This document shows positions 216 through 56,996 of a DNA stretch of 64,000 nt, piece by piece. Source of the DNA: Acidobacteriota bacterium (GTDB lineage Bacteria; Acidobacteriota; UBA6911; RPQK01; JAJDTT01). The position numbers and the translations under genes were made by a program. The DNA is taken from contig OZ253580.1 of the NCBI GenBank assembly GCA_965263035.1, positions 4,736,001 through 4,800,000 on the forward strand, written 5' to 3'. The notes below the pieces were generated by a model. That model did not search any database. It saw only the letters and a list, made by a program, of their open reading frames with translations, and was not told the DNA's origin. The first letter of the stretch is position 1. Each line of letters opens with the position of its first letter.

Positions 216-2936
216 GTGATGATCCGCTTCCTGACAGCTGCCTGGAGCCGGTGCACGGGGATCGCCGTTGGGATTGCTGTGGCGCTGTCGCTCGGTTGGG
301 CCCCGGCGCACTTGCCGGGGCAGGCTTCGCCGCGGACGGCGCCAGGTGGTGAATTCCAGGTCCAGTTGTTCGAGGATCTGCCTGCCGACTGGCACCAGGA
401 ATGGTCGTTTCAAGGACTCAAGCCCTCCTTGAGTTGGACGACGCCCGTCTTGGGATTGAATGGTCTCCCCGGGCGGATCTCCCCGGCGGGGATGACCATG
501 CCGCGGAACCGGCCCTTCGCTCTGACGATCCAGGGCAGCCTGCACCTGCCGGGAGGCGAATATGAGTTCCGTCTCCGGAGCCGCATGCACGGCCGCTTCT
601 TTGTCGACGACCGTTTGCTCATCCAGTCCGAGCCCCCAAAACCAAAGGACCTGACCCTGGAGGAGATCGCGGCCAAGGAGGCGGCCGACAAGAAAGTCCG
701 GGACGAAGCGGCCCAGAAGGAAGCCGAGGCCCAGGCGCGGCAGGATCTGCTGCGGCAGAGGTTGGAAGATGCGCTGCTGGAGCAGAACGAAGAGACCCAG
801 AAGGCCGTTGCGGCGGATCTCGAGAAGGCGAACCGGCGCCAGAAGGGTGAGCTGTCCGATACTGAACCTCCTGCCCGGATACAGGAGTCGGCAACCCGTG
901 TGCCGCTGGAATCGGGACGTTATCGCCTGAGGATCGAGCTGACGGGCGAGCGGTTGGATCGGGAGGTTTCCATCGTCTACCGGAGGGGAGAGGAGGAGCC
1001 GCGCCTGCTGAGTCTGGGGGATCGCATCCCCTTCACCGAGAGCGGGTGGGACCAGTGGAACCAAGCCGAATCCCGGCGGAACCGGGAGCTGGAGGACGCG
1101 GTTCGGAAGCCGCGGTTGGCGAGCTGGGAGGAGTATTGGCAGCAGCGGCATCTGGAGCAGGCTCGCGCCGTTGCCGCATCCAGAAAACCAGTGGATGTCG
1201 AGCCGGCCGCCGGCATGTCCGAGTTCAACCTCATCGACCGTTTTCTCGGCGCCAGAATGGCCGCCCATGAGGTGGCGCCGGCCCCCCTAACCAACGATTA
1301 CGAGTTCGTCCGCCGGATCTATGTCGACGTCTGGGGCCTGATCCCCACCTGGGAGCAGGTCCGGGAATTCGTCAATGATTCGCAGCCCGGCAAGCGGAAC
1401 CTGCTCATCGATCGCCTTCTGGCGGACGACGGCTGGGCCGACCCCTGGGTCGGCTACTGGCAGGACCTGCTGGGAGAGAACGCCAAGCTCTACGGCGGCG
1501 TCCCGCACTCCACCGGCCCCTTCAAGGAGTGGATTCACCGGAGTTTCGTGGAGGATCGGGGATACGACCGGTTCGCCACCGAGCTTCTGCTCATGGAGGG
1601 CACTCCCGAACAGCAGGGAACGATTGGCTTTCAGCAATCCTTCGGCAGCGACGTTCCCATGGCCGAGAAGGCCCACGTGATTTCCCAGGCGTTCATGGGC
1701 GCCACCATGAAATGCGCCCGCTGCCACGACTCCCCGCTGAATCGTTACCGGCAGCGCGACCTCTTCGGGATCGCCGCCATGTTACAGGGGGAGCCGGTGG
1801 CCATACCGGAGACCAGCAGCGTCGGCGTGGTCCCGGGACGGCGCAAGCCGGCAGTTCCCATCACCAACAAGCCGGGGGACCGGATCCCCCCGTCGTTCGT
1901 CTTCGACCGCGGACGCGACCCCGCTCGGGTCGGTCCGGATGCGCGGGCTCATCGGGAAGCTCTGGCGGCATGGATGGCGTCCCAGCACCGGTTCGCCCAG
2001 GTGGGAGTCAACCGCATCTGGCAGCGGTTCATGGGCCGGGGCTTGGTCCACCCCATCGACGACTGGGACTCGCCGTCTGAAGTTTCCCATCCTGGATTGC
2101 TCGACTATCTGACCGAGGAATTCATCGGGAGTGGCTATAGTGTCCGGCATGTCCAGGAACTGATTCTCAAGTCCCACGCCTATCAGAGGCACAGGGACCA
2201 GAACCTCGCCGAATTGCGAGACGCTGCCGGCCAACCTTTTTTTGCAGCTCCAGGAGCCCGGCGAATGCGTGCTGAGGAGATCGTCGATTCGCTCCACCTG
2301 ACGGTGCGCAGGCCGTTCAAGAGCGAGCGCATCGCCTACCAGAAGGTGGACTACGGAATCCCGAAACGCACTTGGCAGATCGTCTCCCTGTCCAACGAGG
2401 AGGACGTGGCGGTCCTGGCCAAGCCGTTGTTGCAGGAGATCATCACGCTGGCCAAGGCCTTCGGTTGGCGGGACCAGCGCCCGAACCCGTTGAGTGTGCG
2501 AAATGACGATCCTCATGCCTTGCAGCCCCTGGCCCTGGCCAACGGGGATTTGATGCACCGTCTGGTCAAGCTCACCGACCGTTCGTATTACACGGAACTC
2601 TCGAGAGAAGCCGGCACGCTGGACCAATACGGAAACCGGTTGTTCCTAAACACCCTGTCGAGGCCCCCCACCGAGCGGGAAAAGAGCTGGCTCCGGAACG
2701 AGCTCGGAGCCCTCTGGAGCCGGAGACTCGTTCCCCGCGAGCTTCGGGAGGCGAGAAGGGAAGAGGCTGGAGTCGAGGCGGTGACGGTGACCGACTCCAT
2801 CGCGGCCCATCAGTACATCCTGCGGGTCCGGCAAGGGGAGCCCGCCACGACGGCCCTGACGCCGGCCTGGCGCCGGAATGCGGAGAAGGTGTTGTGGGCC
2901 GTGCTCAACTCCCCGGAGTTCATTTTCCTGCCCTAG
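216..2936 (+). CDS. Secreted DUF1549/DUF1553 (PSD1/PSCyt-type) protein with N-terminal PA14-like region
   Basis: Signal peptide; NLIDRF...DYEFVRRIYVDVWGLIPT, CARCHD, VNRIWQRFMGRGLVHPIDD, HPGLLDYL, C-terminal WAVLNSPEFIF. Confidence 0.9.
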   Translation: MMIRFLTAAWSRCTGIAVGIAVALSLGWAPAHLPGQASPRTAPGGEFQVQLFEDLPADWHQEWSFQGLKPSLSWTTPVLGLNGLPGRISPAGMTMPRNRPFALTIQGSLHLPGGEYEFRLRSRMHGRFFVDDRLLIQSEPPKPKDLTLEEIAAKEAADKKVRDEAAQKEAEAQARQDLLRQRLEDALLEQNEETQKAVAADLEKANRRQKGELSDTEPPARIQESATRVPLESGRYRLRIELTGERLDREVSIVYRRGEEEPRLLSLGDRIPFTESGWDQWNQAESRRNRELEDAVRKPRLASWEEYWQQRHLEQARAVAASRKPVDVEPAAGMSEFNLIDRFLGARMAAHEVAPAPLTNDYEFVRRIYVDVWGLIPTWEQVREFVNDSQPGKRNLLIDRLLADDGWADPWVGYWQDLLGENAKLYGGVPHSTGPFKEWIHRSFVEDRGYDRFATELLLMEGTPEQQGTIGFQQSFGSDVPMAEKAHVISQAFMGATMKCARCHDSPLNRYRQRDLFGIAAMLQGEPVAIPETSSVGVVPGRRKPAVPITNKPGDRIPPSFVFDRGRDPARVGPDARAHREALAAWMASQHRFAQVGVNRIWQRFMGRGLVHPIDDWDSPSEVSHPGLLDYLTEEFIGSGYSVRHVQELILKSHAYQRHRDQNLAELRDAAGQPFFAAPGARRMRAEEIVDSLHLTVRRPFKSERIAYQKVDYGIPKRTWQIVSLSNEEDVAVLAKPLLQEIITLAKAFGWRDQRPNPLSVRNDDPHALQPLALANGDLMHRLVKLTDRSYYTELSREAGTLDQYGNRLFLNTLSRPPTEREKSWLRNELGALWSRRLVPRELREARREEAGVEAVTVTDSIAAHQYILRVRQGEPATTALTPAWRRNAEKVLWAVLNSPEFIFLP

Positions 2937-3096
2937 GAGCCTGCGCCGCAGAAATTGATCTACTGCGAAAGTGGTAAAATCGGTCCATATTTCCCCGATT
3001 TCTCGGCGAATAGAACAACTATGCACCTCAAAATCGAGAAAATCCGGCCTCGATTCCCCACTTTCTCGCTACGATCATTTCTACCGCGCAGACTCC
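2936..3096. mobile_element. MITE family 1, copy 1 (161 bp, ~20-bp imperfect TIR GGAGYCTGCGC..., TA duplication)
   Basis: Reverse complement of the near-identical copies at 22014..22174 and 56836..56996; TA at 2934-2935 and 3097-3098. Confidence 0.9.
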
Positions 3097-3109
3097 TAGG
3101 AGAGACGTC

Positions 3110-20136: not shown

Positions 20137-22014
20137 ATGATTCTGCTGGTTGCCGCCATTCTCCTGATCTCTCCACTGCAGGCCGCCAAGGAGGCTCTGC
20201 CGAGCGAACCCCGGGCCCTCTACATCTATCCGGTGGGAGGACAGCGCGGATCCGCTGCGGAGGTGCAGATCGAGGGGCAGACGCTGCAAGGAACCTATGC
20301 CGTCTGGACCGACTGCCAGTCGCTGCGCGGTCGAGTGACGCGGATCGACGAGATCGATGTCCCTGAAGAGCAAGGCGCGGCGGCTCCGGCGGACTCTTTG
20401 AGCCATCGGGTCACCGTGGAAGTGGAGATCGCATCCACCGCTGCTCTGGGGGGGCATTCGCTCCGGCTGGTGTCGCCAAGGGGTGTCTCCGACCCCGTTC
20501 CGTTCCGAGTGAGCTCGGAACTGGAGCCGGTGATCAGAGAGGATTCGAGCCAGACCGGATCCGGCAAGCCGACCCGGGGCCAAGCCGTCGACTATCCGGT
20601 GGCTGTCAACGGACGGATCGGCAGGGCGGTGGGTGGCGAGGTCGACTACTACAGCTTCGATGTGGACGCGGGCCGCGAGCTCTATTTCGAGGTCTTCTTC
20701 CCGGGCATTGGCGCGCCGCTCCCCCCCAAGATGCTGCTGTATCTGTATCGGCACGAACCGAGTTGGGTGGACCCGCATCGCCTCCGGAGATTGGCATTCA
20801 ATGACGACCCCGTCGTTAACGAAGCCGGATTGTTTGCCGAGCACGGAACGGTTCACAAGGCGAGCTTGAAGCATCGATTCGTCGATTCGGGACGATATCT
20901 GATCGCGGTCAAGGGCTTCGACGACCGGGGCGGACCCCATTGGGTCTACCAACTTCGAATCGTCGACGCCACGGGTCAGGAGATCTCCGGCGACGTTCGC
21001 TCCTGGCCGCGGGCACATTCCGATCCGCACGCGTGGTACGAACGGAGGTTCCAAGCACATCTCTCCCCGGATCGCCTGCGGGAGATTGGGAAGCGAACCG
21101 TTCTCAGGGCTGGCGAGTCTCAGGCGCCATGGGGAGCTGCCGGATCGGCCGCGTCCTCGGGCTCGGGCCGGGTGTCTGACGCGACGGGACCGACTCCGGC
21201 GCCTGAAGCCATCCGGACCGCTTCCACCCATCGGATCGCTGGGAGTTCCGAGAGTGGCCGGGAATCGGCCCTGGTGACGCTACCCGCAATTGTCGAGGGT
21301 GTCATCGATCGTCCGGGCAAGGCTGACCGAGTCAGGTTCCAGGCCAGCGCAGGGCAGGCCGTGGCAGTGGAAGTGGAAACCCCCCGCGATGCAGTCCCCG
21401 TCTTTGTTCCTTGGGTTCAGGTTCTGGACGGGAACCAGGAGGTGGTCTTCAGCGCCATCTACAATCGGGTCACCGGCAACAACGTCATGCTGTTTCGGGA
21501 GCTCGAATCCAAGATGGTCTATACCTTCGACCGGGATGGAGAATTCACTCTGCAGATTCGCGAGTTGACGACCGGCCATGCGGGGTCCGGCTTCGCCTAC
21601 CGCGTGTTGATCCGGCCCCAGATCCCTCACGTCGGGCAGTTGAAGGTGGAGCCGGAGCACCTCAACCTCGCGCCGGGCCAAGCCAAGCAGCTGACCGTGA
21701 CGGTGGAACGCGAAGAGCAGTTCGACGGTGAAGTTGCTCTCGCCGTCGACGGTCTGCCGGAAGGTGTGCACGCCTACGCGACGGCGGTTCCGGAGGCGGA
21801 ACGCCCCCCCGCCTTCGACGAATCCGAGAAACACATGTTCCGTCCCGAGACCCAGAAGGTCTCCATCACGCTGATGGCCGAGGACGGAGCCTCGACTACG
21901 AGACTGCCCCGCGTCGTGCGAGTCAGAGCCCGGGCCATCGTGGGCGGGAAAACGGGACCCCTGATCCCGGTGGGCGACATCCCATTGATGGTGGTGGCGC
22001 CTCCCTCGTCGTAG
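20137..22014 (+). CDS. Secreted PPC (pre-peptidase C-terminal) domain protein of DUF1553/DUF1501 clusters
   Basis: IYPVGGQRGS, PVAVNGRIG...VDYYSF, VEGVIDRPGKADRVRF; start uncertain (ORF open from 20032). Confidence 0.8.
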   Translation: MILLVAAILLISPLQAAKEALPSEPRALYIYPVGGQRGSAAEVQIEGQTLQGTYAVWTDCQSLRGRVTRIDEIDVPEEQGAAAPADSLSHRVTVEVEIASTAALGGHSLRLVSPRGVSDPVPFRVSSELEPVIREDSSQTGSGKPTRGQAVDYPVAVNGRIGRAVGGEVDYYSFDVDAGRELYFEVFFPGIGAPLPPKMLLYLYRHEPSWVDPHRLRRLAFNDDPVVNEAGLFAEHGTVHKASLKHRFVDSGRYLIAVKGFDDRGGPHWVYQLRIVDATGQEISGDVRSWPRAHSDPHAWYERRFQAHLSPDRLREIGKRTVLRAGESQAPWGAAGSAASSGSGRVSDATGPTPAPEAIRTASTHRIAGSSESGRESALVTLPAIVEGVIDRPGKADRVRFQASAGQAVAVEVETPRDAVPVFVPWVQVLDGNQEVVFSAIYNRVTGNNVMLFRELESKMVYTFDRDGEFTLQIRELTTGHAGSGFAYRVLIRPQIPHVGQLKVEPEHLNLAPGQAKQLTVTVEREEQFDGEVALAVDGLPEGVHAYATAVPEAERPPAFDESEKHMFRPETQKVSITLMAEDGASTTRLPRVVRVRARAIVGGKTGPLIPVGDIPLMVVAPPSS

Positions 22015-22174
22015 GAGTCTGCGCGGCAGAAATGATCGTAGCGAGAAAGTGGGGAATCGAGGCCAGATTTTCCCGATTTGGAGGTGTATAGTCGTTCTAT
22101 TCGCCGAGAAATCGGGGAAATATGGACCGATTCTACCGCTTTCGCAGTAGATCAATTTCTGCCGCGCAGGCTCC
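22014..22174. mobile_element. MITE family 1, copy 2
   Basis: GGAGTCTGCGCG...CGCGCAGGCTCC flanked by TA; near-identical to copies 1 and 3. Confidence 0.9.
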
Positions 22175-27331: not shown

Positions 27332-28327
27332 GTGAATAGGGTGAGTCGCTTCCTGATGCGGGGCCTCCGGCGTCCCGAGTCGGGTCCCCTCGTGGGCTTG
27401 CTGGCTCTGGGACTCCTGTTCGAGATCCTCTCGGGCGGCAAGTTCCTGACCTTCCCCCAGCTGAGCGCTCTGGCCGCTCTCTCGGCCTCGCTGGGCATGG
27501 TGGCCCTGGGCGTGACCCTGCTCATGATCAGCGGGGAGTTCGACCTCTCCGTCTCTCAGACCTTCGCCTTGGCGCCTATCGTCATGGGCCGCCTGATCAC
27601 CGATCTGGACTGGCCGGCGGCTGCTGCCCTTGGGTTGGCGCTGGCGGCCGTGCTGCTGGTGGGTCTGATCAACGGTTTGTTGACCACGCTGGCCCGAATC
27701 CCTTCGCTGATCGTGACCCTGGGGATGTTGTTCGCCGTCACCAGCCTGAATCGGATCCTGGCCGGCGGCTATCCGGTTCAGGTCTATGGCCTGGAGAGTC
27801 CGCTGATCCGCCTCATGGGAGAGGACGTTCCGGCCACGCCCGTTGGCGCCCCCTTTCTCTGGATGTTGTCCGTGGCGGCCATTCTCTGGTTTGTCCTGGA
27901 GCGGATCGGCTACGGAAACTGGACCCGGGCCGCCGGGCACTCGGGTGGAAGCGTGGCCCGAGCCATGGGTGTGCCCGTCGCCAGAGTCAAGCTGACCAAC
28001 TTTGCCCTGTGCGCGGGGCTGGCAGGATTGGCGGGCTGTCTTCAGCTGGCGGATTTCGGGTCGTCCGGCGTGAGTTCGGGAGAAAACTCCAACCTGCTGG
28101 CCATCGTGGCCGTAGTCATGGGGGGCACCTCTCTCTTCGGGGTTCGCGGAACCATTCTGGGGACGCTGCTGGGGACCCTGATCCTGGGCGCGCTCAAGAC
28201 CGGACTGATCCTGGTGGGGACCAGGGGCGAATACTACACGGGGCTGATCGGCGTCCTGCTGTTGGTTGTGGCGGTGATCAACGCCCGAGCGGAGTCAGTA
28301 CGCCGCGGGGGTGAGAACAGCTCGTGA
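27332..28327 (+). CDS. Sugar ABC transporter permease (RbsC-like)
   Basis: ISGEFDLSV, IPSLIVTLG, AVVMGGTSLFG. Confidence 0.95.
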   Translation: MNRVSRFLMRGLRRPESGPLVGLLALGLLFEILSGGKFLTFPQLSALAALSASLGMVALGVTLLMISGEFDLSVSQTFALAPIVMGRLITDLDWPAAAALGLALAAVLLVGLINGLLTTLARIPSLIVTLGMLFAVTSLNRILAGGYPVQVYGLESPLIRLMGEDVPATPVGAPFLWMLSVAAILWFVLERIGYGNWTRAAGHSGGSVARAMGVPVARVKLTNFALCAGLAGLAGCLQLADFGSSGVSSGENSNLLAIVAVVMGGTSLFGVRGTILGTLLGTLILGALKTGLILVGTRGEYYTGLIGVLLLVVAVINARAESVRRGGENSS

Positions 28328-29106
28328 ACAGCCCAGTGGGATCCCCCCAACCGGTCGTGGAATTGATGGAGGTGTCCAAGGCCTACGGCGAAGTGGAGGT
28401 GCTGGGAAACGTCACTCTCAGCCTGGGCGCCGGGGAAGTGGTGGCGCTGGTCGGAGACAACGGGGCCGGCAAGTCCACGCTGGTCAAGATCGTCAGCGGT
28501 TATCTGAGGCCGACCTCGGGAAGGCTGGTCGTGGGGGGCCGGGAGGTCCGGTTTGCATCCCCCCGGGAAGCCCGCCGGTGCGGGATCGAGACCGTCTATC
28601 AGGATCTGGCCATCATCGGCCAGCTGAGCCTGTGGCGGAACTTCTTCCTGGGTCAGGAAATGAGGAGAAAGTGGCTCGGCGTGAGGGTCCTGGACCGGAA
28701 CGCCATGAGAAGGATCTGTCTCGAACGGCTCCGCGATTTCGGCTTGGAGAGTGTCCGCTCGCCGGACCAGCTGGCGGCGTCCCTGTCGGGAGGGGAGCGC
28801 CAGACCCTCGCCATCGCCAGGTCGGTCCACTTCGAATCGCGACTGCTGATACTGGACGAGCCGGTGGCCTCACTTTCCGTACGGGAGGTCCGCCGGGTTC
28901 ACGACACCATTGACCAGGCCAGGAACCGGGGGTTGGGCATCCTCTACATCGACCACAACATGAATCACGTGGTTCCCGTAGCCGACCGGATCGCCGTCCT
29001 GGAGCGGGGCCGCCTCAAGACGGTGGTGCACAGGGGTGAGGTGAGCGCCGCCGACCTGAACGACCTGCTGGCCCGAGAAGCGGGAGCGGCGGTTTCCAAC
29101 CGCTGA
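28324..29106 (+). CDS. Sugar ABC transporter ATP-binding protein
   Basis: Walker A GDNGAGKST, LSGGE signature, LILDEP. Confidence 0.95.
   Translation: MNSPVGSPQPVVELMEVSKAYGEVEVLGNVTLSLGAGEVVALVGDNGAGKSTLVKIVSGYLRPTSGRLVVGGREVRFASPREARRCGIETVYQDLAIIGQLSLWRNFFLGQEMRRKWLGVRVLDRNAMRRICLERLRDFGLESVRSPDQLAASLSGGERQTLAIARSVHFESRLLILDEPVASLSVREVRRVHDTIDQARNRGLGILYIDHNMNHVVPVADRIAVLERGRLKTVVHRGEVSAADLNDLLAREAGAAVSNR
29083..29103 (+). repeat. REP copy forming the 3' end of the ABC ATPase gene
   Basis: GGAGCGGCGGTTTCCAACCGC, 21-nt match to the reverse complement of 52582..52602. Confidence 0.8.
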
Positions 29107-29536
29107 ACAGGAGTATCCATGTTGCAAGTGGTGGGTGCTAATCGGTGTTTCCATCCCGTGTCGTTAGTACGTGATCTGTCCGGTCCAAAGGGCACAGGGT
29201 TAGGAGGAGCGTTCTTCCGCCGGAGGTGAGGCGGAGATCGAGCTGGATCCAGCGGGCGCCGTGCAGGGGGCGATGAGTGGACGGATCAACTGGATCGAGG
29301 GACCTGAGATCGTCGACGTCAGTCCTCCGGGAGGTCCGGATACGCCCTGGGGAGCGTCGGGTCAAGCCTCCGGCTCCTCCGCTTCGCTGCGACCCTTCGG
29401 GTGACCCGGCGCTCCCCAGGGCGTGAAGAGCTTTCATGGCCGTAAGCAAGCTTCCGGCCAGACTTGACCGGAAGTTCGACAGACGGCCATCAGGGGGTCC
29501 ACACGCTCCCTTTCCTCACGGGGTCTCTCCGTGGCC

Positions 29537-30485
29537 TCAGAAGGTCGCTCGGGGCGCTACGGGCAACCAGGTGCGGTCCTGCCGGACGAGGGTGTTGGCC
29601 AGGACGATAAGCTTGCGCATGACGGCGACGAGGGCCACCTTGCCGGGCTTTCCGCGCTCGCTCAGCCTCCGGTACACCTCGGCCAAGTCGGGGTTCCAGC
29701 GCAGGGTGGACACGGCCGGCATGTACAGGAGCCGTCGCGCCCGCGCCCGTCCGCCCCGGATGAAGGCCCGGCCCTGCCAAGCCCCCGACTCGCGCGGAAC
29801 GGCGGCCAACCCGGCCAGACTGGCGGCGGCCTTGCCGCTGAGGGCGCCCAGCTCGGGCATCTCGGCCAGCAGACCGGCGGCGGTGGTGGCCGCGATCCCC
29901 GGGATGGAGGTGAGGATCTCCAACTTGCGGGCCCGCGCCTCGTCGGCCGCAATCAGCGTCTGCAATTTGCGGTCGATGGCGCGCAGGTGGCGCTCGAACA
30001 TGTTGATCTGGATCTGGTTCTGCTGTTTGAGCAGGGGTTCGCGGAGCTGTCGGCGGCGGTTGAGCGTGGCCGTGCGCTGGCGCATCAGCGCGTCCCGGGA
30101 CGTCTGCAGATCCTGGAGCCGGCGTTGCGTTTTGGACGGCACCTGGGTCCGGCGCGGCTCCAGCGTGGCGGCCAGCTGGGCCAGTTTCCGAGCGTCTACG
30201 GCGTCGGTCTTGGCGCGGCTCCCGGTCGCCTCGGCGAAGCGCCGCGCCTGCCAGGGGTTCACCTTCGCCAGCGGCAGCTTCGCTTTGGACAGCGCTTCCT
30301 CGAGGTCCCGGTGGTAGGGGCCGGTGGCCTCGTACGCGACGCACTCGACCGGAGTTCCGATCCAATCGATCAGCGCCCGGAAGCCGGCCGGGTCATTGTC
30401 GAACTGGGCGGAATGGCCGTCGGCCAGCCGGTGCGCGTCCAGGTGCGCTTTCGAGATGTCGATGTCTAGCGGTATGCTGTTTCAT
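29537..30485 (-). pseudogene. IS110 DEDD recombinase, frameshifted near codon 6
   Basis: DIDISKAHLD, YEATGPYH, AKTDAVDA, SIPGI, ESG, KVALVAVMRKL continuous from 30469; the SD-preceded ATG at 30485 is one base out of frame. Confidence 0.88.
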
Positions 30486-30486
30486 C

Positions 30487-30650
30487 TTTCCTGTCTCCTG
30501 TGCTTGTCATTCGGGCCTTGATGCCCTTGTATCCATTCAGGACATCGGGAAAGACGGTGGCCGACCTGACTGCTTTTCGGTTCGCAAAAGTCCGCGGCGG
30601 TACGGTCCAGCCACCGCCGTCCGGGTCGCTCATGAGCGACCCGGACGGCC
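30487..30650 (-). ncRNA. IS110 bridge RNA (5' hairpin, target-binding loop, donor-binding loop)
   Basis: 34-bp palindrome 30616..30649; guides ACCGCCGC, CAGG, ATGGATAC and GACAAG match the element's own target and donor junctions; ends approximate. Confidence 0.85.
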
Positions 30651-30667
30651 CCATTTAAACAGACAAG

Positions 30668-30772
30668 CGGCGGTTTCCAACCGCCGACTTCCCGAGCAAC
30701 CACCGCCCGACCAGCCCGCGGGCGCACGACGGAATGGGCGTGCCGGAATGGGCGACTGGAAATCGTCCCTCC
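30668..30772. repeat. REP doublet (BIME-like), left unit split by IS110
   Basis: CGGCGGTTTCCAACCGCC (30668..30685) and inverted GGGCGACTGGAAATCGTCCCTCC (30750..30772); same arrangement as 52509..52602. Confidence 0.8.
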
Positions 30773-30800
30773 AAGTCGCCCCTGGATTTTTCTCAGAGGT

Positions 30801-31601
30801 TCAATACGGCAGCAACCCGCCTTCGACGTTCATGGCGCTGGACGTGATGTAATCGGCGTCGTCAGAGCAGAGGAACGCCACCACGTTGGCCATGTCCTCC
30901 GGTTGCTGAATCCGGCCCAGGGGAATGCTGCCCACGGCTCCCGCCTTGATCGAGCCCTCGGGAACGTCCAGGATCCTGGCGGTCTCACGATCGATCAGGT
31001 CCCACATGGGAGTGTCGATGATGCCGCCGCAGATGCTGTTGACCAGGATCTGGTGGTCTGACAGCTCCAGACCCAGTTGCTTTCCGAAGCCGATCGCGGC
31101 GTGCTTGCTGGCGGCATAGGCCCCTAACGGGGTGTTCTTCCCCGGCGCGATCTTTCCGGCCCCCGAAGCGTTGATGATGATCCGCCCCCCGTGGCCTTGC
31201 CGGATCATCTGCCGAGCCGCAGCAGTGCAACAAAGGAAGACGCCCTTGGCGTTGACGGCCATCAGGCGGTCCCAGCTCGCTTCGTCGGTGTCGATCAGGC
31301 GTGCGACGATGCCGATCCCGGCATTGGCCACCAGGATGTCCAGCTTGCCGAAGGCTTCTACCGTCGCGGCAATCATGGCGTCGACGTCGCCGGATCGCGT
31401 CACGTCCGCCTGCAGACCCACGGCCTCCCCGCCCGCGGACCGAATCTCCGCCGCTGTCGACTCGGCGCCGTCCCGGTCAATGTCCGCCACCCCCACCCGG
31501 GCCCCTTCCCGGGCCAGACGCAGGGCAATGGCCCGGCCGATGCTGCGTCCGGCGCCGGTGACCAACGCTGTTTTCCCCTCGATTTCCGGATATCTGGCCA
31601 T
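30801..31601 (-). CDS. SDR family oxidoreductase
   Basis: TGAGRSIG, LVANAG, YAASK. Confidence 0.95.
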   Translation of the reverse strand: MARYPEIEGKTALVTGAGRSIGRAIALRLAREGARVGVADIDRDGAESTAAEIRSAGGEAVGLQADVTRSGDVDAMIAATVEAFGKLDILVANAGIGIVARLIDTDEASWDRLMAVNAKGVFLCCTAAARQMIRQGHGGRIIINASGAGKIAPGKNTPLGAYAASKHAAIGFGKQLGLELSDHQILVNSICGGIIDTPMWDLIDRETARILDVPEGSIKAGAVGSIPLGRIQQPEDMANVVAFLCSDDADYITSSAMNVEGGLLPY

Positions 31602-40213: not shown

Positions 40214-42016
40214 ATGACCGCTCAAGGAGGGGACCTGTCCCAATCGAACGTTGTGGCGCCGCCGAGGACTCGAATCGTCAATTCAGGGCGGTGCCGGTCT
40301 TTTGCGGCACTGGTCCTGCTCACTGCCCTCGATCTTCCCGCCGAATCGAATTTCGGGCCGGACCTCTTCAGCGACCAGGCTCAGGCAGTCGGAATCGATT
40401 TCGTGCACTTCAACGGGATGTCGGGAGAGAAGTACTACTGTGAGATGGTGGGATCGGGCGGCGCCCTGTTCGATTACGACAACGACGGAGACCTGGACCT
40501 CTATATCGTCCAGGGCAACATGTTGGGGCCGGAAAAGACGCTGAAGGACTCCCTCTTTCCGCCGCGGGTCCCGTTGCCTCCGAGAGACCGTCTGTATCGA
40601 AACGACCTGGAGCTCCCGGCAGACGCGAGCCGGAACCTGCGCTTCACCGACGTGACCGGGGAGAGCGGCATCGAGGCCACCGGATACGGCATGGGAGCGG
40701 CGGCGGCCGACGTCGACAACGACGGCTGGATCGACCTCTTCGTGACCAACTTCGGGCGGAACCAGCTGTTTCGCAACAACGGGGACGGCAGCTTCAGCGA
40801 GGCCGCGTTACCGGGAGAGGCCACGCCCCGCTGGAGCGTCAGCGCGGCATTCCTGGACTACGACCGCGACGGGTGGCTCGACCTCTTTGTCGGCAACTAC
40901 GTCAACTTCAGCTTCTCCCACACCAAGGGCTGTTTCGGTTCGACGGGACGTGTCGACTATTGCGGGCCGCTCAGTTACGAGCCGGTCCCGGACCAGTTGT
41001 TTCGCAACCGGGGAGACGGGACCTTTGAGGGTGCATCAGGCGCTTCCCAGATCGCCCGCCAATACAACGGTTCCCTGGGGGTGGTCACGGCCGACTTCAA
41101 CCTGGACGGGTGGATCGACCTCTACGTGGCCAACGACCAGCGGCCCAATCACCTCTGGATGAATCAGAAGGACGGGACCTTCAGCAACGAGGCGTTACTG
41201 GCCGGCTGCGCCTTCAACAAGGATGGGAAGGCGGAGTCGAGCATGGGCGTGGACGCGGCGGACTTCGACAACGACGGCGACGAAGACCTGTTCATGACTC
41301 ATCTTCTGAACGAGACCAACACGCTCTATCGAAACGACGGCACCGGCTGGTTCGAGGACCACTCCTCGGGTACCCGGCTCGCCCCCCCCAGCGTCCCCTT
41401 CACCGGATTCGGAACGGCCTTTCTGGACTACGACAACGATGGCTGGCTGGACGTCCTGGCTCTGAACGGACATGTCTCCACCCTCGAGGTCCTGGCCAGG
41501 GACAATGACCCCTACCCGCTTCATCAGCCCAATCAACTCTTCCGCAACCTGAACGGGGAACGGTTCGAGGACGTGACCGGTGGGGCCGGCCGGGTCTTCG
41601 AGCTCTCGGAAGTGAGCCGGGGCGGGGCCTTCGGGGATGTGGACAATGACGGCGACACGGATGTCCTGGTGGTCAACAACAACGGCCGGGCGCGACTGTT
41701 GATCAACCAGATGGGCCAGCGGCGCCATTGGCTGGGACTACGAATGTTGGACCGGCGGCTCAAAAGGGACCTGTTGGGCACTCGGGTGGGTGTATTCCTG
41801 CCCGGGGGACGGACCCTCTGGCGCCGGGTCCGGACCGACGGGAGTTTCGCCTCGTCCAACGATCCCAGGCTGCTCTTCGGACTCGGAGACGAGACGCGGG
41901 TGTCGAAGGTCCGCGCCCATTGGACAGACGGAACCGTGGAGGAATGGAGCGGCCTACCCATCGACCGATATACGGTTCTCTATCGAGGTACCGGAAAAGC
42001 GGTGACGAACCGATGA
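40214..42016 (+). CDS. CRTAC1/ASPIC-UnbV family FG-GAP protein 1
   Basis: Repeated DxDNDGxxDL motifs; C-terminal GSFASSNDPRLLFGLG. Confidence 0.93.
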   Translation: MTAQGGDLSQSNVVAPPRTRIVNSGRCRSFAALVLLTALDLPAESNFGPDLFSDQAQAVGIDFVHFNGMSGEKYYCEMVGSGGALFDYDNDGDLDLYIVQGNMLGPEKTLKDSLFPPRVPLPPRDRLYRNDLELPADASRNLRFTDVTGESGIEATGYGMGAAAADVDNDGWIDLFVTNFGRNQLFRNNGDGSFSEAALPGEATPRWSVSAAFLDYDRDGWLDLFVGNYVNFSFSHTKGCFGSTGRVDYCGPLSYEPVPDQLFRNRGDGTFEGASGASQIARQYNGSLGVVTADFNLDGWIDLYVANDQRPNHLWMNQKDGTFSNEALLAGCAFNKDGKAESSMGVDAADFDNDGDEDLFMTHLLNETNTLYRNDGTGWFEDHSSGTRLAPPSVPFTGFGTAFLDYDNDGWLDVLALNGHVSTLEVLARDNDPYPLHQPNQLFRNLNGERFEDVTGGAGRVFELSEVSRGGAFGDVDNDGDTDVLVVNNNGRARLLINQMGQRRHWLGLRMLDRRLKRDLLGTRVGVFLPGGRTLWRRVRTDGSFASSNDPRLLFGLGDETRVSKVRAHWTDGTVEEWSGLPIDRYTVLYRGTGKAVTNR

Positions 42017-52508: not shown

Positions 52509-52602
52509 GGAGGGGCGATTTCCAATCGCCCATTCCTCCGTTCCCCTGCGCGCCATTCCCCCATTCCCATTCCCGGATTCGGCGGTTGGAAACCGCCGCT
52601 CC
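52509..52602. repeat. REP doublet (BIME-like)
   Basis: GGAGGGGCGATTTCCAATCGCCC (52509..52531) and inverted GGCGGTTGGAAACCGCCGCTCC (52581..52602). Confidence 0.82.
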
Positions 52603-52734
52603 ACTCCCATCCTTTTACCTTCCGGGATTTTACCGGACTCTGGCCGGTGCGGGAGATTCTTAGTAACGTAGACGAAACTCGAAAGCAGCCGAGCCAAATC
52701 GAAATCACACCATCGCAGAGGGAGAACAGGAAAA

Positions 52735-56688: not shown

Positions 56689-56833
56689 GGTAAAAGTCGT
56701 CGCGGCATTCGACTGGGTCTGCATCGTGCGCGGACTGCGTTGCGCCTCGGTCACATAGGGTCGAATATGCTCCCTCACCGCGCCTTGTCCGGCGGGCGCA
56801 GCCCCGGTCTCGGTGCTACGCGGGACTTTCACC
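56689..56833. mobile_element. MITE-like family 2, copy B
   Basis: GGTAAAAGTCGT...GGGACTTTCACC; colinear with 35506..35648; directly abutted by MITE family 1. Confidence 0.72.
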
Positions 56834-56835
56834 TA

Positions 56836-56996
56836 GGAGTCTGCGCGGTAGAAATGATCGTAGCGAGAAAGTGGGGAATCGAGGCCAGATTTTCTCGATT
56901 TTGAGGTGCATAGTTGTTCTATTCGCCGAGAAATCGGGGAAATATGGACCGATTCTACCGCTTTCGCAGTAGATCGATTTCTGCAGCGCAGGCTCC
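56836..56996. mobile_element. MITE family 1, copy 3
   Basis: GGAGTCTGCGCGGTAGAAAT...ATTTCTGCAGCGCAGGCTCC (17/20 inverted match), flanked by TA. Confidence 0.9.

Follow-up and report, generated by a model that had tools for sequence, protein, structure and literature searches.

The minus strand of positions 29112..30665 in a 64,000-nt window of an Acidobacteriota bacterium genome (GenBank assembly GCA_965263035.1, contig OZ253580.1, positions 4,736,001 to 4,800,000; hereafter the window) is an insertion sequence (IS) of the IS110 family, 1554 bp long when one CT core is counted. The element sits between two convergent open reading frames (ORFs) and is bordered by repetitive extragenic palindromes (REPs). 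In reading order on the minus strand, the locus consists of a REP hairpin GGCGGTTGGAAACCGCCG, CT, the left end beginning with TGTCTGTTTAAAT, the right end finishing with CTTGCAACATGGATA, CT, the bases CCTG and a second REP. The region is very probably a copy of an IS110-group insertion sequence that moves by bridge-RNA-guided recombination of the type described for the bridge-RNA recombinase system IS621 of Escherichia coli (Durrant et al. 2024, PMC11208160; Hiraizumi et al. 2024, PMC11208158). The family assignment, the ends, the architecture of the RNA and the covariation of its guides with the flanking DNA are established by the comparisons described below, and the coordinates of the features are collected in Table 1.

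Ends and genomic copies of the element

The host genome is a single 6.2-Mb contig, and contains 13 copies of the element together with one right-end fragment. Both ends are present in 12 of these copies, the remaining one (c5835k) being truncated. All 13 copies start with CT-TGTCTGTTTAAAT, all 12 complete copies close with ACATGGATA-CT, and CT flanks every one of the 12 full copies. The left flanks of the 13 copies include nine instances of ACCGCCG, three of ACCGACG and a single GCCGCCG; the right flanks of the 12 copies that have one are CCCA (three), CCCT (three), CCTG (two), CCTC (two), CCCG (one) and CTCG (one). The window copy is 98-99% identical to the intact sister copies.

Four sequencing runs were compared as assembled contigs, which record presence only, carry no information on transcript starts or ends, and have a depth that does not represent expression. 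In the metatranscriptome run X15, a 1187-nt contig covers 28900..29111 and resumes at 30666..30900, skipping 1554 bases with a 2-base ambiguity at the joint. This contig is the empty allele of this very site; it fixes the ends of the element exactly and shows that related populations are polymorphic for the insertion. The 2-base ambiguity agrees with a CT core. In run X18, cover is absent over 30441..30641. Further, short-sided joints near 30686..30750 and from 29108/29112 to 30745 probably represent other REP loci.

By inspection, the right end has a -35-like hexamer, TTGCAA, and the left end a -10-like hexamer, TTAAAT; the two would be spaced by 17 nt once the ends are joined as a circle. 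By analogy with IS621, these two hexamers may form a promoter in the circular form.

The right end also features a palindromic insert that is missing in three sister copies and in one X15 contig. The same insert is found alone at genome positions 2981641..2981723 (95%) and 1959693..1959822 (90%), and looks like a second small mobile or REP-like unit inside the IS.

The recombinase

In the window copy, the ATG at 30483..30485 opens a frame of only 30 codons, and the frame containing the DEDD and Tnp domains runs without a start from residue 6 to the stop codon at 29537..29539. The extra base responsible, located after codon 5-6, is common to the window copy and c5835k, and is found neither in the other 11 of the 13 copies nor in the X15, X2 and X5 contigs that cover that place. 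One further copy is frameshifted near residue 273. The protein is intact in 10 copies, with a length of 315 aa in nine of them and 314 aa in one; one intact sister gene lies at genome positions 6115745..6116689. Because its recombinase is frameshifted at codon 6, the window copy is non-autonomous. As the host genome also holds intact copies, an activity test would not require the frameshift to be repaired.

The intact sister protein P0001 matches PF01548 (DEDD_Tnp_IS110, 7e-23) and PF02371 (Transposase_20, 9.5e-19), and scores 208 bits against the NCBIfam equivalog NF033542, 'IS110 family RNA-guided transposase', for which the cut-off is 140. Its residues 3-299 align with the solved recombinases of ISCro4 (1.7e-35) and IS621 (3e-32, PDB 8wt6), and the GID, EAT, TDAVDA and ESG motifs, which we take to be the catalytic motifs, are aligned and identical between P0001 and ISCro4/IS621. 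The DEDD residues and a conserved serine are mentioned for the IS621 system (PMC11208158). The 90% cluster of this protein has 294 members from NCBI, ENA and JGI, and none of the 40 members examined is named; the closest relatives come from Acidobacteriota genomes assembled from metagenomes.

Four additional open frames of 505-558 aa in the genome show weak identity (27-29%) to the C-terminal half of the recombinase, with matches at genome positions 3359810..3360295, 4847792..4848274, 2038926..2039432 and 2457632..2458114.

A probable bridge RNA in the left end

The 180-nt left end that precedes the start codon comprises a 5' stem-loop, a target loop and a donor loop, which is the layout of the IS621 bridge RNA, and it is presumably transcribed. 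Its minimum-energy fold is steadier than those of shuffled sequences (z = -4.65 and -5.08). The single-sequence folds were rejected as structures, as they paired the guides with each other and failed to reproduce the donor loop, and comparative analysis was used for this reason. The relatives fall into three groups by protein identity: Acidobacteriota metagenome-assembled genomes (84-94%), Candidatus Foliamicus (65-69%) and one alphaproteobacterial genome (37-44%). The left ends follow a common plan, which begins with the 5' stem-loop, the closing helices of the target loop, a C-G-U linker, the left target guide (LTG), a small stem-loop, G-N, a 7-nt window of the right target guide (RTG) that ends in AG, U-N, and the other strands of the closing helices. 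It continues with UCCUG-A, the left donor guide (LDG), a stem-loop, the right donor guide (RDG), C-A and CAGGA.

A covariance model built from nine sequences with this structure matches all 13 copies in the genome with 214-221 bits (216 bits for the window copy), and relatives with 45-222 bits. Over five helices and 33 distinct rows, 97.3% of the cells are paired, compared to 82.3% in shuffled alignments, and 17 of the 31 pairs have changed on both sides; none of 500 shuffles reaches the observed values. When the partners are slid relative to each other as a control, only 33-52% are paired. The helix GACC/GGUC has become GAUC/GAUC in the alphaproteobacterial lineage, and the retained helices include G-U pairs. 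Variability is modestly enriched around the target loop, with 10 variable columns in 60 nt versus 97 in 1559 overall, a level that some coding windows equal. The model matches seven of 101 related genomes (the host genome included), and within the genus it matches five of eight other genomes.

Several helices suggested by RNAalifold were not retained. One inside the LDG (columns 126-129 with 135-138) never varies and was dropped, as were small helices between the LTG and the RTG, while a 'helix' between columns 2-5 and 161-164 is the DNA-RNA match of the right donor (RD) and the RDG. A MAFFT alignment that included the alphaproteobacterial sequences was wrong in the target loop, and was replaced by the model-based alignment.

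The bridge-RNA model also has a fourteenth match, a weak one of 54.7 bits, at genome positions 5242087..5242221 with no recombinase match listed nearby; it may be a degenerate or divergent left end. In some relatives, two bridge-RNA-like modules are present in tandem, at L039 and L089 (1260..1476 and 1762..1940) and at L097 and L103 (upstream of 1684), with a weak module (47 bits) before a strong one. Between loci the upstream sequence does not differ, and either nested elements or a composite left end of greater length could account for these arrangements.

Covariation of the guides with the flanking DNA

The guides could be parsed in 65 of 72 elements; the parse failed for L037, L039, L075, L078, L079, L086 and L089, which are left out of the counts. 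A first parse based on regular expressions had picked wrong anchors in many loci and was redone. A left flank was parsed for 59 elements, and in 48 of them the left target (LT) is exactly that given by the LTG; L039/L089 and L097/L103 take no part in this test as their left flanks were not resolved. Many of the 59 elements are near-identical copies, and the figure at the level of lineages is therefore the fair one: in six LTG lineages, 40 of 42 positions match, which only 2 of 720 permutations reach. The three sister copies with the LTG ACCGACGC are the three that are sited at ACCGACG-CT, and relatives with the LTG sequences GUCGCCG, GCCCUCG and UUCGUGU are inserted at those same sequences.

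On the donor side, RD and RDG vary together in three states, TGTC/GACA, TGTA/TACA and TATC/GATA. The handshake rule of IS621, by which donor position 7 is paired by the nucleotide following the RTG and target position 7 by the one following the RDG (PMC11208158), can also be followed through the relatives. All 65 parsed elements have U next to the RTG, opposite the donor A7, and the base after the RDG is C, facing the target G7, in the Acidobacteriota and Foliamicus elements, but A, facing the target T7, in the alphaproteobacterial lineage. The second handshake base is mostly unpaired. Comparison of sisters and relatives thus supports the predicted placement of the LTG, LDG and RDG, all of which covary with the DNA flanks.

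The register of the RTG can be set by comparison with IS621, where every guide includes the core, the wild-type RTG has 4 nt but can be extended to 7, and the handshake bases follow directly (PMC11208160, PMC11208158). In the corresponding register, all seven positions are paired for the RTG UCUGGAG with the flank CT-CCAGA (L038), ACGGGAG with CT-CCCGT (L098), GAGGGAG with CT-CCCTC (L097 and L103) and AUGGGAG with CT-CCCAT (L040 and two of the six B-type copies in the host genome), and six of seven are paired for UCGUGAG with CT-CACGG in the alphaproteobacterial family. The sister copy c0076k, with the RTG AAAGGAG at CT-CCTCT, fits at six of seven positions, and AAAGGAG would fit the window site equally well (6/7). 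The window RTG, AAAGCAG, has a G-to-C difference at the base due to pair with the first right-target base.

Another sister copy, c2494k (genome positions 2494772..2496260), has the protein and the left-end variants of the C-type backbone, but an A-type target loop, which suggests that target-loop modules are exchanged between copies by recombination.

Much of this had been anticipated in a first-pass annotation, made from the letters of the window. The junctions, palindrome, guide strings and stems that it listed are all present on the minus strand where it had placed them. Its assignment to the IS110 family is borne out by the Pfam and NCBIfam matches and by the homology to the solved IS621 and ISCro4 recombinases, and its reading of the left end as the source of a bridge RNA like that of IS621, for an element with a CT core and a REP target, agrees with the architecture and covariation. 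Its LTG, LDG and RDG are those found here to covary with the flanks in sisters and relatives, and the recombinase frame is indeed broken, at codon 6. The fold and covariance-model search that it proposed yielded a stable fold, matches to 13 of 13 copies and covarying helices. Its expectation that other copies would share the same ends in the same kind of site was correct as regards the ends, which are identical, but not as regards the site, which is not a REP in three copies.

Target sites

The REP motif ACCGCCGCTCC occurs 91 times in the genome, compared to 12 expected occurrences, and most copies are preceded by (T)CGGCGGTTGGAA, mostly as (T)CGGCGGTTGGAAACCGCCGCTCC. The REP copies in the window lie at gene ends; a further match to the pattern, at 40694, does not qualify as a REP. 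The 3' arm of the REP hairpin serves as the left target, and a hairpin at this place is kept in relatives as CGGCGAC...GTCGCCG and CGAGGGC...GCCCTCG. Sorted by right flank, the empty sites in the genome include 12 with CCCG, 10 with CCCA, nine each with CCAG and CCTG, and seven with CCTC. The best fit of the window RTG variant is ACCGCCG-CT-GC, for which there are nine genomic sites, none of them in a REP and none occupied.

The three C-type copies (LTG ACCGACGC) do not target a REP. They are inserted in the left end of a different repeated element, about 40 bp in from its terminus and upstream of the gene for a DDE transposase of 501 aa (DUF772, DDE_Tnp_1, DDE_Tnp_1_6). Among the empty copies of that end, four read ACCGAAG, which does not match the LTG, and two read ACCGACG. 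A single LTG base separates the C-type, IS-end-targeting variant from those that target REPs. The DDE insertion sequence itself corresponds to L091 207..1789 (genome positions ~1999806..2001388), and further copies are located at ~146 kb, 1608 kb, 1954 kb and 2237 kb.

Table 1. Features of the element and of its surroundings in the window, in minus-strand order.
Feature	Coordinates	Strand	Basis or remark
Insertion sequence	29112..30665	-	Shared ends of 13 copies and X15 empty-site contig
Left REP hairpin GGCGGTT-GGAA-AACCGCC-G	30668..30685	-	3' arm holds LT ACCGCCG (30668..30674)
Left CT core copy	30666..30667	-	Ends of the copies and ambiguity of the empty-site joint
Left junction ACCGCCG-CT-TGTC	30662..30674	-	Sequence
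TTAAAT, -10-like hexamer, left end	30653..30658	-	Inspection
5' stem-loop (34-nt palindrome)	30616..30649	-	All 12 pairs change on both sides across relatives
Target-loop closing helices, 5' strand	30602..30615	-	GGTGGC 30610..30615, GACC 30604..30607, linker GU
LTG ACCGCCGC	30594..30601	-	Seven LT bases plus first core base; faces ACCGCCG-C
RTG in IS621 register, A-AAAGCAG	30570..30577	-	7-nt window 30570..30576; register fixed by relatives
Target-loop handshake bases UC	30568..30569	-	U can pair with donor position 7 (A)
CAGG, RTG of the first-pass annotation	30565..30568	-	Second handshake base, linker A and first GG of closing helix GGUC (30563..30566)
Target-loop closing helices, 3' strand GGTC-G-GCCACC	30556..30566	-	GGUC 30563..30566, GCCACC 30556..30561
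Donor-loop closing helix, 5' strand UCCUG	30538..30542	-	Pairs with CAGGA 30496..30500; one pair with two-sided changes, in 12 distinct rows
LDG ATGGATAC (RNA AUGGAUAC)	30529..30536	-	Seven left-donor (LD) bases plus first core base; faces ATGGATA-C
Donor-loop stem-loop GGGC-AUCAAG-GCCC	30513..30526	-	Relatives GAGC/GCUC, GGGA/UCCC
RDG GACAAG and handshake bases CA	30501..30508	-	RDG 30503..30508, CA 30501..30502; reverse complement of CT-TGTC
Recombinase gene, broken	29537..30485	-	One extra base near 30469 (codon 6)
Palindromic insert in right end, ~76-83 bp	29342..29424	-	Copy comparison and contig joint 29345 to 29422
TTGCAA, -35-like hexamer, right end	29122..29127	-	Inspection; relatives TTGACA, TTGCAT, TTGATT at same place
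Right junction	29108..29120	-	LD ATGGATA 29114..29120, core CT 29112..29113, right target CCTG 29108..29111
Second, empty REP right of element, flank CCCG	29081..29104	-	Overlaps last codons of + strand ORF 28324..29106
Empty REP ACCGCCG-CT-CCAC	52580..52604	+	Sequence

Proposed mechanism and alternative explanations

In the mechanism proposed here, the left-end RNA would present a target loop with the LTG ACCGCCGC, a 7-nt RTG window ending in AG and two handshake bases, and a donor loop with the LDG AUGGAUAC, the RDG GACAAG and two handshake bases. In the complex of recombinase and RNA, the donor loop would pair with the joined ends of the excised circle (ATGGATA-CT-TGTC) and the target loop with the 3' hairpin arm of a REP plus its right flank (ACCGCCG-CT-CCnnn), and strands would be exchanged at CT. 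The window copy is most likely a recent, non-autonomous copy, and was probably placed by the recombinase of one of the ten intact sisters; the guide for its insertion may have been its own RNA, before the G-to-C change, or the RNA of a sister. Such action in trans is presumed, as is the order of mutation and insertion.

A number of observations weigh against bridge-RNA guidance of this kind. The window RTG, AAAGCAG, is paired with CT-CCTGT at five of seven positions, with mismatches at right-target positions 1 and 4. In the lineage-level RTG test, 20 of 28 positions match and 132 of 5040 permutations reach that value, which is only weakly significant. Right-target bases 1-2 are CC almost everywhere, and the lineage with the RTG AUGUGGAG fits poorly; that lineage (L031, L033, L035 and L036) fits its right flanks over CC only. 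The alignment used for covariation was fitted to the model structure, which favours that structure, and the small stem-loop within the target loop is not conserved in sequence and not clearly so in pairing. Rfam yielded 23 weak matches, all far below the gathering scores and mostly to microRNA models on the two palindromes. The circle junction ATGGATACTTGTC has no match in the assembly and no back-joint among the run contigs, and these contigs, in showing presence only, give no direct sign that the left-end RNA is made. Finally, the right end is longer than the left (~423 nt versus 180 nt), and the trend in end lengths described for the IS110 group runs in the opposite direction (PMC11208160).

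In one alternative, that of the first-pass annotation, the guide would be CAGG, pairing with CCTG without the core and set off by an internal CTTTT/AAAAG stem, and the target loop of the copy would match its own site in full. In favour of this, CAGG and the right flank CCTG are exact reverse complements, the CTTTT and AAAAG segments complement each other, A-type and B-type copies differ on both sides of the putative stem, and the same register in the Foliamicus lineage reads UGGG, facing CCCA. This explanation is nevertheless very improbable. The guides of IS621 include the core, and its RTG directly precedes the handshake bases, whereas CAGG has no complement to the core and the bases after it are UC rather than AG; its GG forms part of the GACC/GGUC helix, which is kept by a compensatory change as GAUC/GAUC. 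There is no covariation of CAGG with the right flank: by inspection, its register fits the flank in two of eight lineages, while the AG-ended register fits at 7/7 in four independent lineages. The right flank is known for three of the copies that carry CAGG, and only one of these is at CCTG, the remaining two being at CCTC and CTCG; the second copy at a CCTG site carries GAGG. CAGG is therefore read as a chance 4-base match in the wrong register. The CTTTT/AAAAG stem, present only in the A-type copies, to which the window copy belongs, and overlapping the RTG window, was rejected as a feature of the family. The two empty REPs to which the annotation had pointed, with right flanks CCCG and CCAC, do exist, but their vacancy does not speak for a CAGG guide, since nine ACCGCCG-CT-CCTG sites are also empty and sister copies occupy CCCG, CCCA, CCCT, CCTC and CTCG. 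The description of the element as fully decodable has to be given up as well, as its own RTG mismatches its own site at two of the five right-target positions.

It is also conceivable that the window copy is a dead relic in which recombinase and target loop have both decayed, so that the RNA has no role and the guide matches are merely inherited. The frameshift at codon 6 would be expected of such a relic, and the GCAG variant matches no REP-type site (the nine ACCGCCG-CT-GC sites are non-REP and empty) and is also found on the truncated copy c5835k; on the other hand, it is also found on c2494k, which has an intact 315-codon gene. This account is unlikely given the 98-99% identity to intact sisters, a site that is polymorphic in related populations and thus points to a recent insertion, and a donor loop, LTG and set of helices that are all intact (216 bits). 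Hardly credible is a role for the left end as DNA, in the form of protein-binding repeats or a promoter, with the protein picking the REP hairpin itself. REP hairpins are structured, a target stem-loop adds specificity in the case of ISPpu10, and the run contigs provide presence and not transcript evidence, but compensatory changes keep helices of an RNA type, G-U pairs included, the guides change with the flanks on the correct strand and with the correct polarity, and the protein is homologous to recombinases that have been solved with a bridge RNA. An IS621-type, bridge-RNA-guided element thus remains the preferred explanation for this locus.

Comparison with known systems

In the IS621 RNA, the LTG (A50-U58) follows the linker C47-U49, the RTG (G77-G80, with an extension at 74-76) follows the linker G72-U73, the handshake bases are 81-82 and 166-167, and the LDG has 8 nt (PMC11208158). 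The element described here resembles IS621 in its DEDD and Tnp recombinase, homologous over its whole length (3e-32), in its CT core, and in the order of parts in the left-end RNA, where the 5' stem-loop is followed by the target loop, with the LTG, a stem-loop, an AG-ended RTG and two handshake bases, and by the donor loop, with an LDG of 8 nt, a stem-loop, the RDG and handshake bases. The C-G-U linker before the LTG, the conserved G before the RTG window and, by inspection, the -35-like and -10-like hexamers of the right and left ends, respectively, are further points of similarity. It differs from IS621 in its guide sequences and host phylum, and is known here from sequence alone. The LTG of this lineage covers the first core base only, the RTG pairing window extends to as many as 7-8 nt, compared to 4 nt in wild-type IS621, and the left end is the shorter of the two. 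Among solved relatives, P0001 scores best with the ISCro4 transposase (PDB 9t56), with which it was compared by protein only.

REP-targeting elements of the IS110 family reportedly include ISPpu9 of Pseudomonas putida. ISPpu10 of Pseudomonas putida inserts in REPs, and the target stem-loop adds specificity (bioRxiv 10.64898/2026.03.19.712850). The present element shares with ISPpu10 insertion in REPs, a left target formed by the 3' arm of the hairpin with a complementary 5' extension, and many targets that remain empty; unlike ISPpu10 and ISPpu9, it has an unrelated host and REP sequence, and three of its copies are at a non-REP site. Elements of the IS1111 group are said to carry their RNA in the right end and to insert in the ends of other transposable elements. 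The C-type copies, ~40 bp inside the left end of a DDE IS, are similar to these in their location, but the RNA is in the left end and a single LTG base sets the IS-end-targeting variant apart.

Other repeats in the window

A repeat of ~165 bp occurs in more than 170 copies in the genome, with 92-98% identity (for example at genome positions ~1125672..1125838). Three copies are in the window, at ~2927..3102, 22009..22174 and 56832..56996. This repeat looks like a miniature transposable element.

Significance

The understanding of how bridge recombinases work is left unchanged by this element, which enlarges a family now used for genome editing by an uncharacterised orthologue whose guides vary naturally. 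Its practical assets include an intact sister recombinase, four natural target-loop variants with their insertion sites, and RTG pairing over up to 7-8 bases. The most interesting details are the guide variants within one genome and the single-base retargeting to the end of another IS, where one natural change in the LTG coincides with a change of target class.

The four target-loop variants in the genome have the RTG sequences AAAGCAG, AAAGGAG, AUGGGAG and UUGGGAG, the last in combination with the LTG ACCGACGC. It is possible, if rather doubtful, that they constitute a natural library of target loops on near-identical elements; as the donor ends are shared, any guide could then move any copy in trans, recombinase-dead copies would persist as guide-only passengers, and one variant would have been retargeted to the end of the DDE IS. 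If this is true, guide-only passenger copies would widen the range of sites open to the family, and C-type insertion between the terminus of the DDE IS and the start of its transposase would be a case of one mobile element disabling another.

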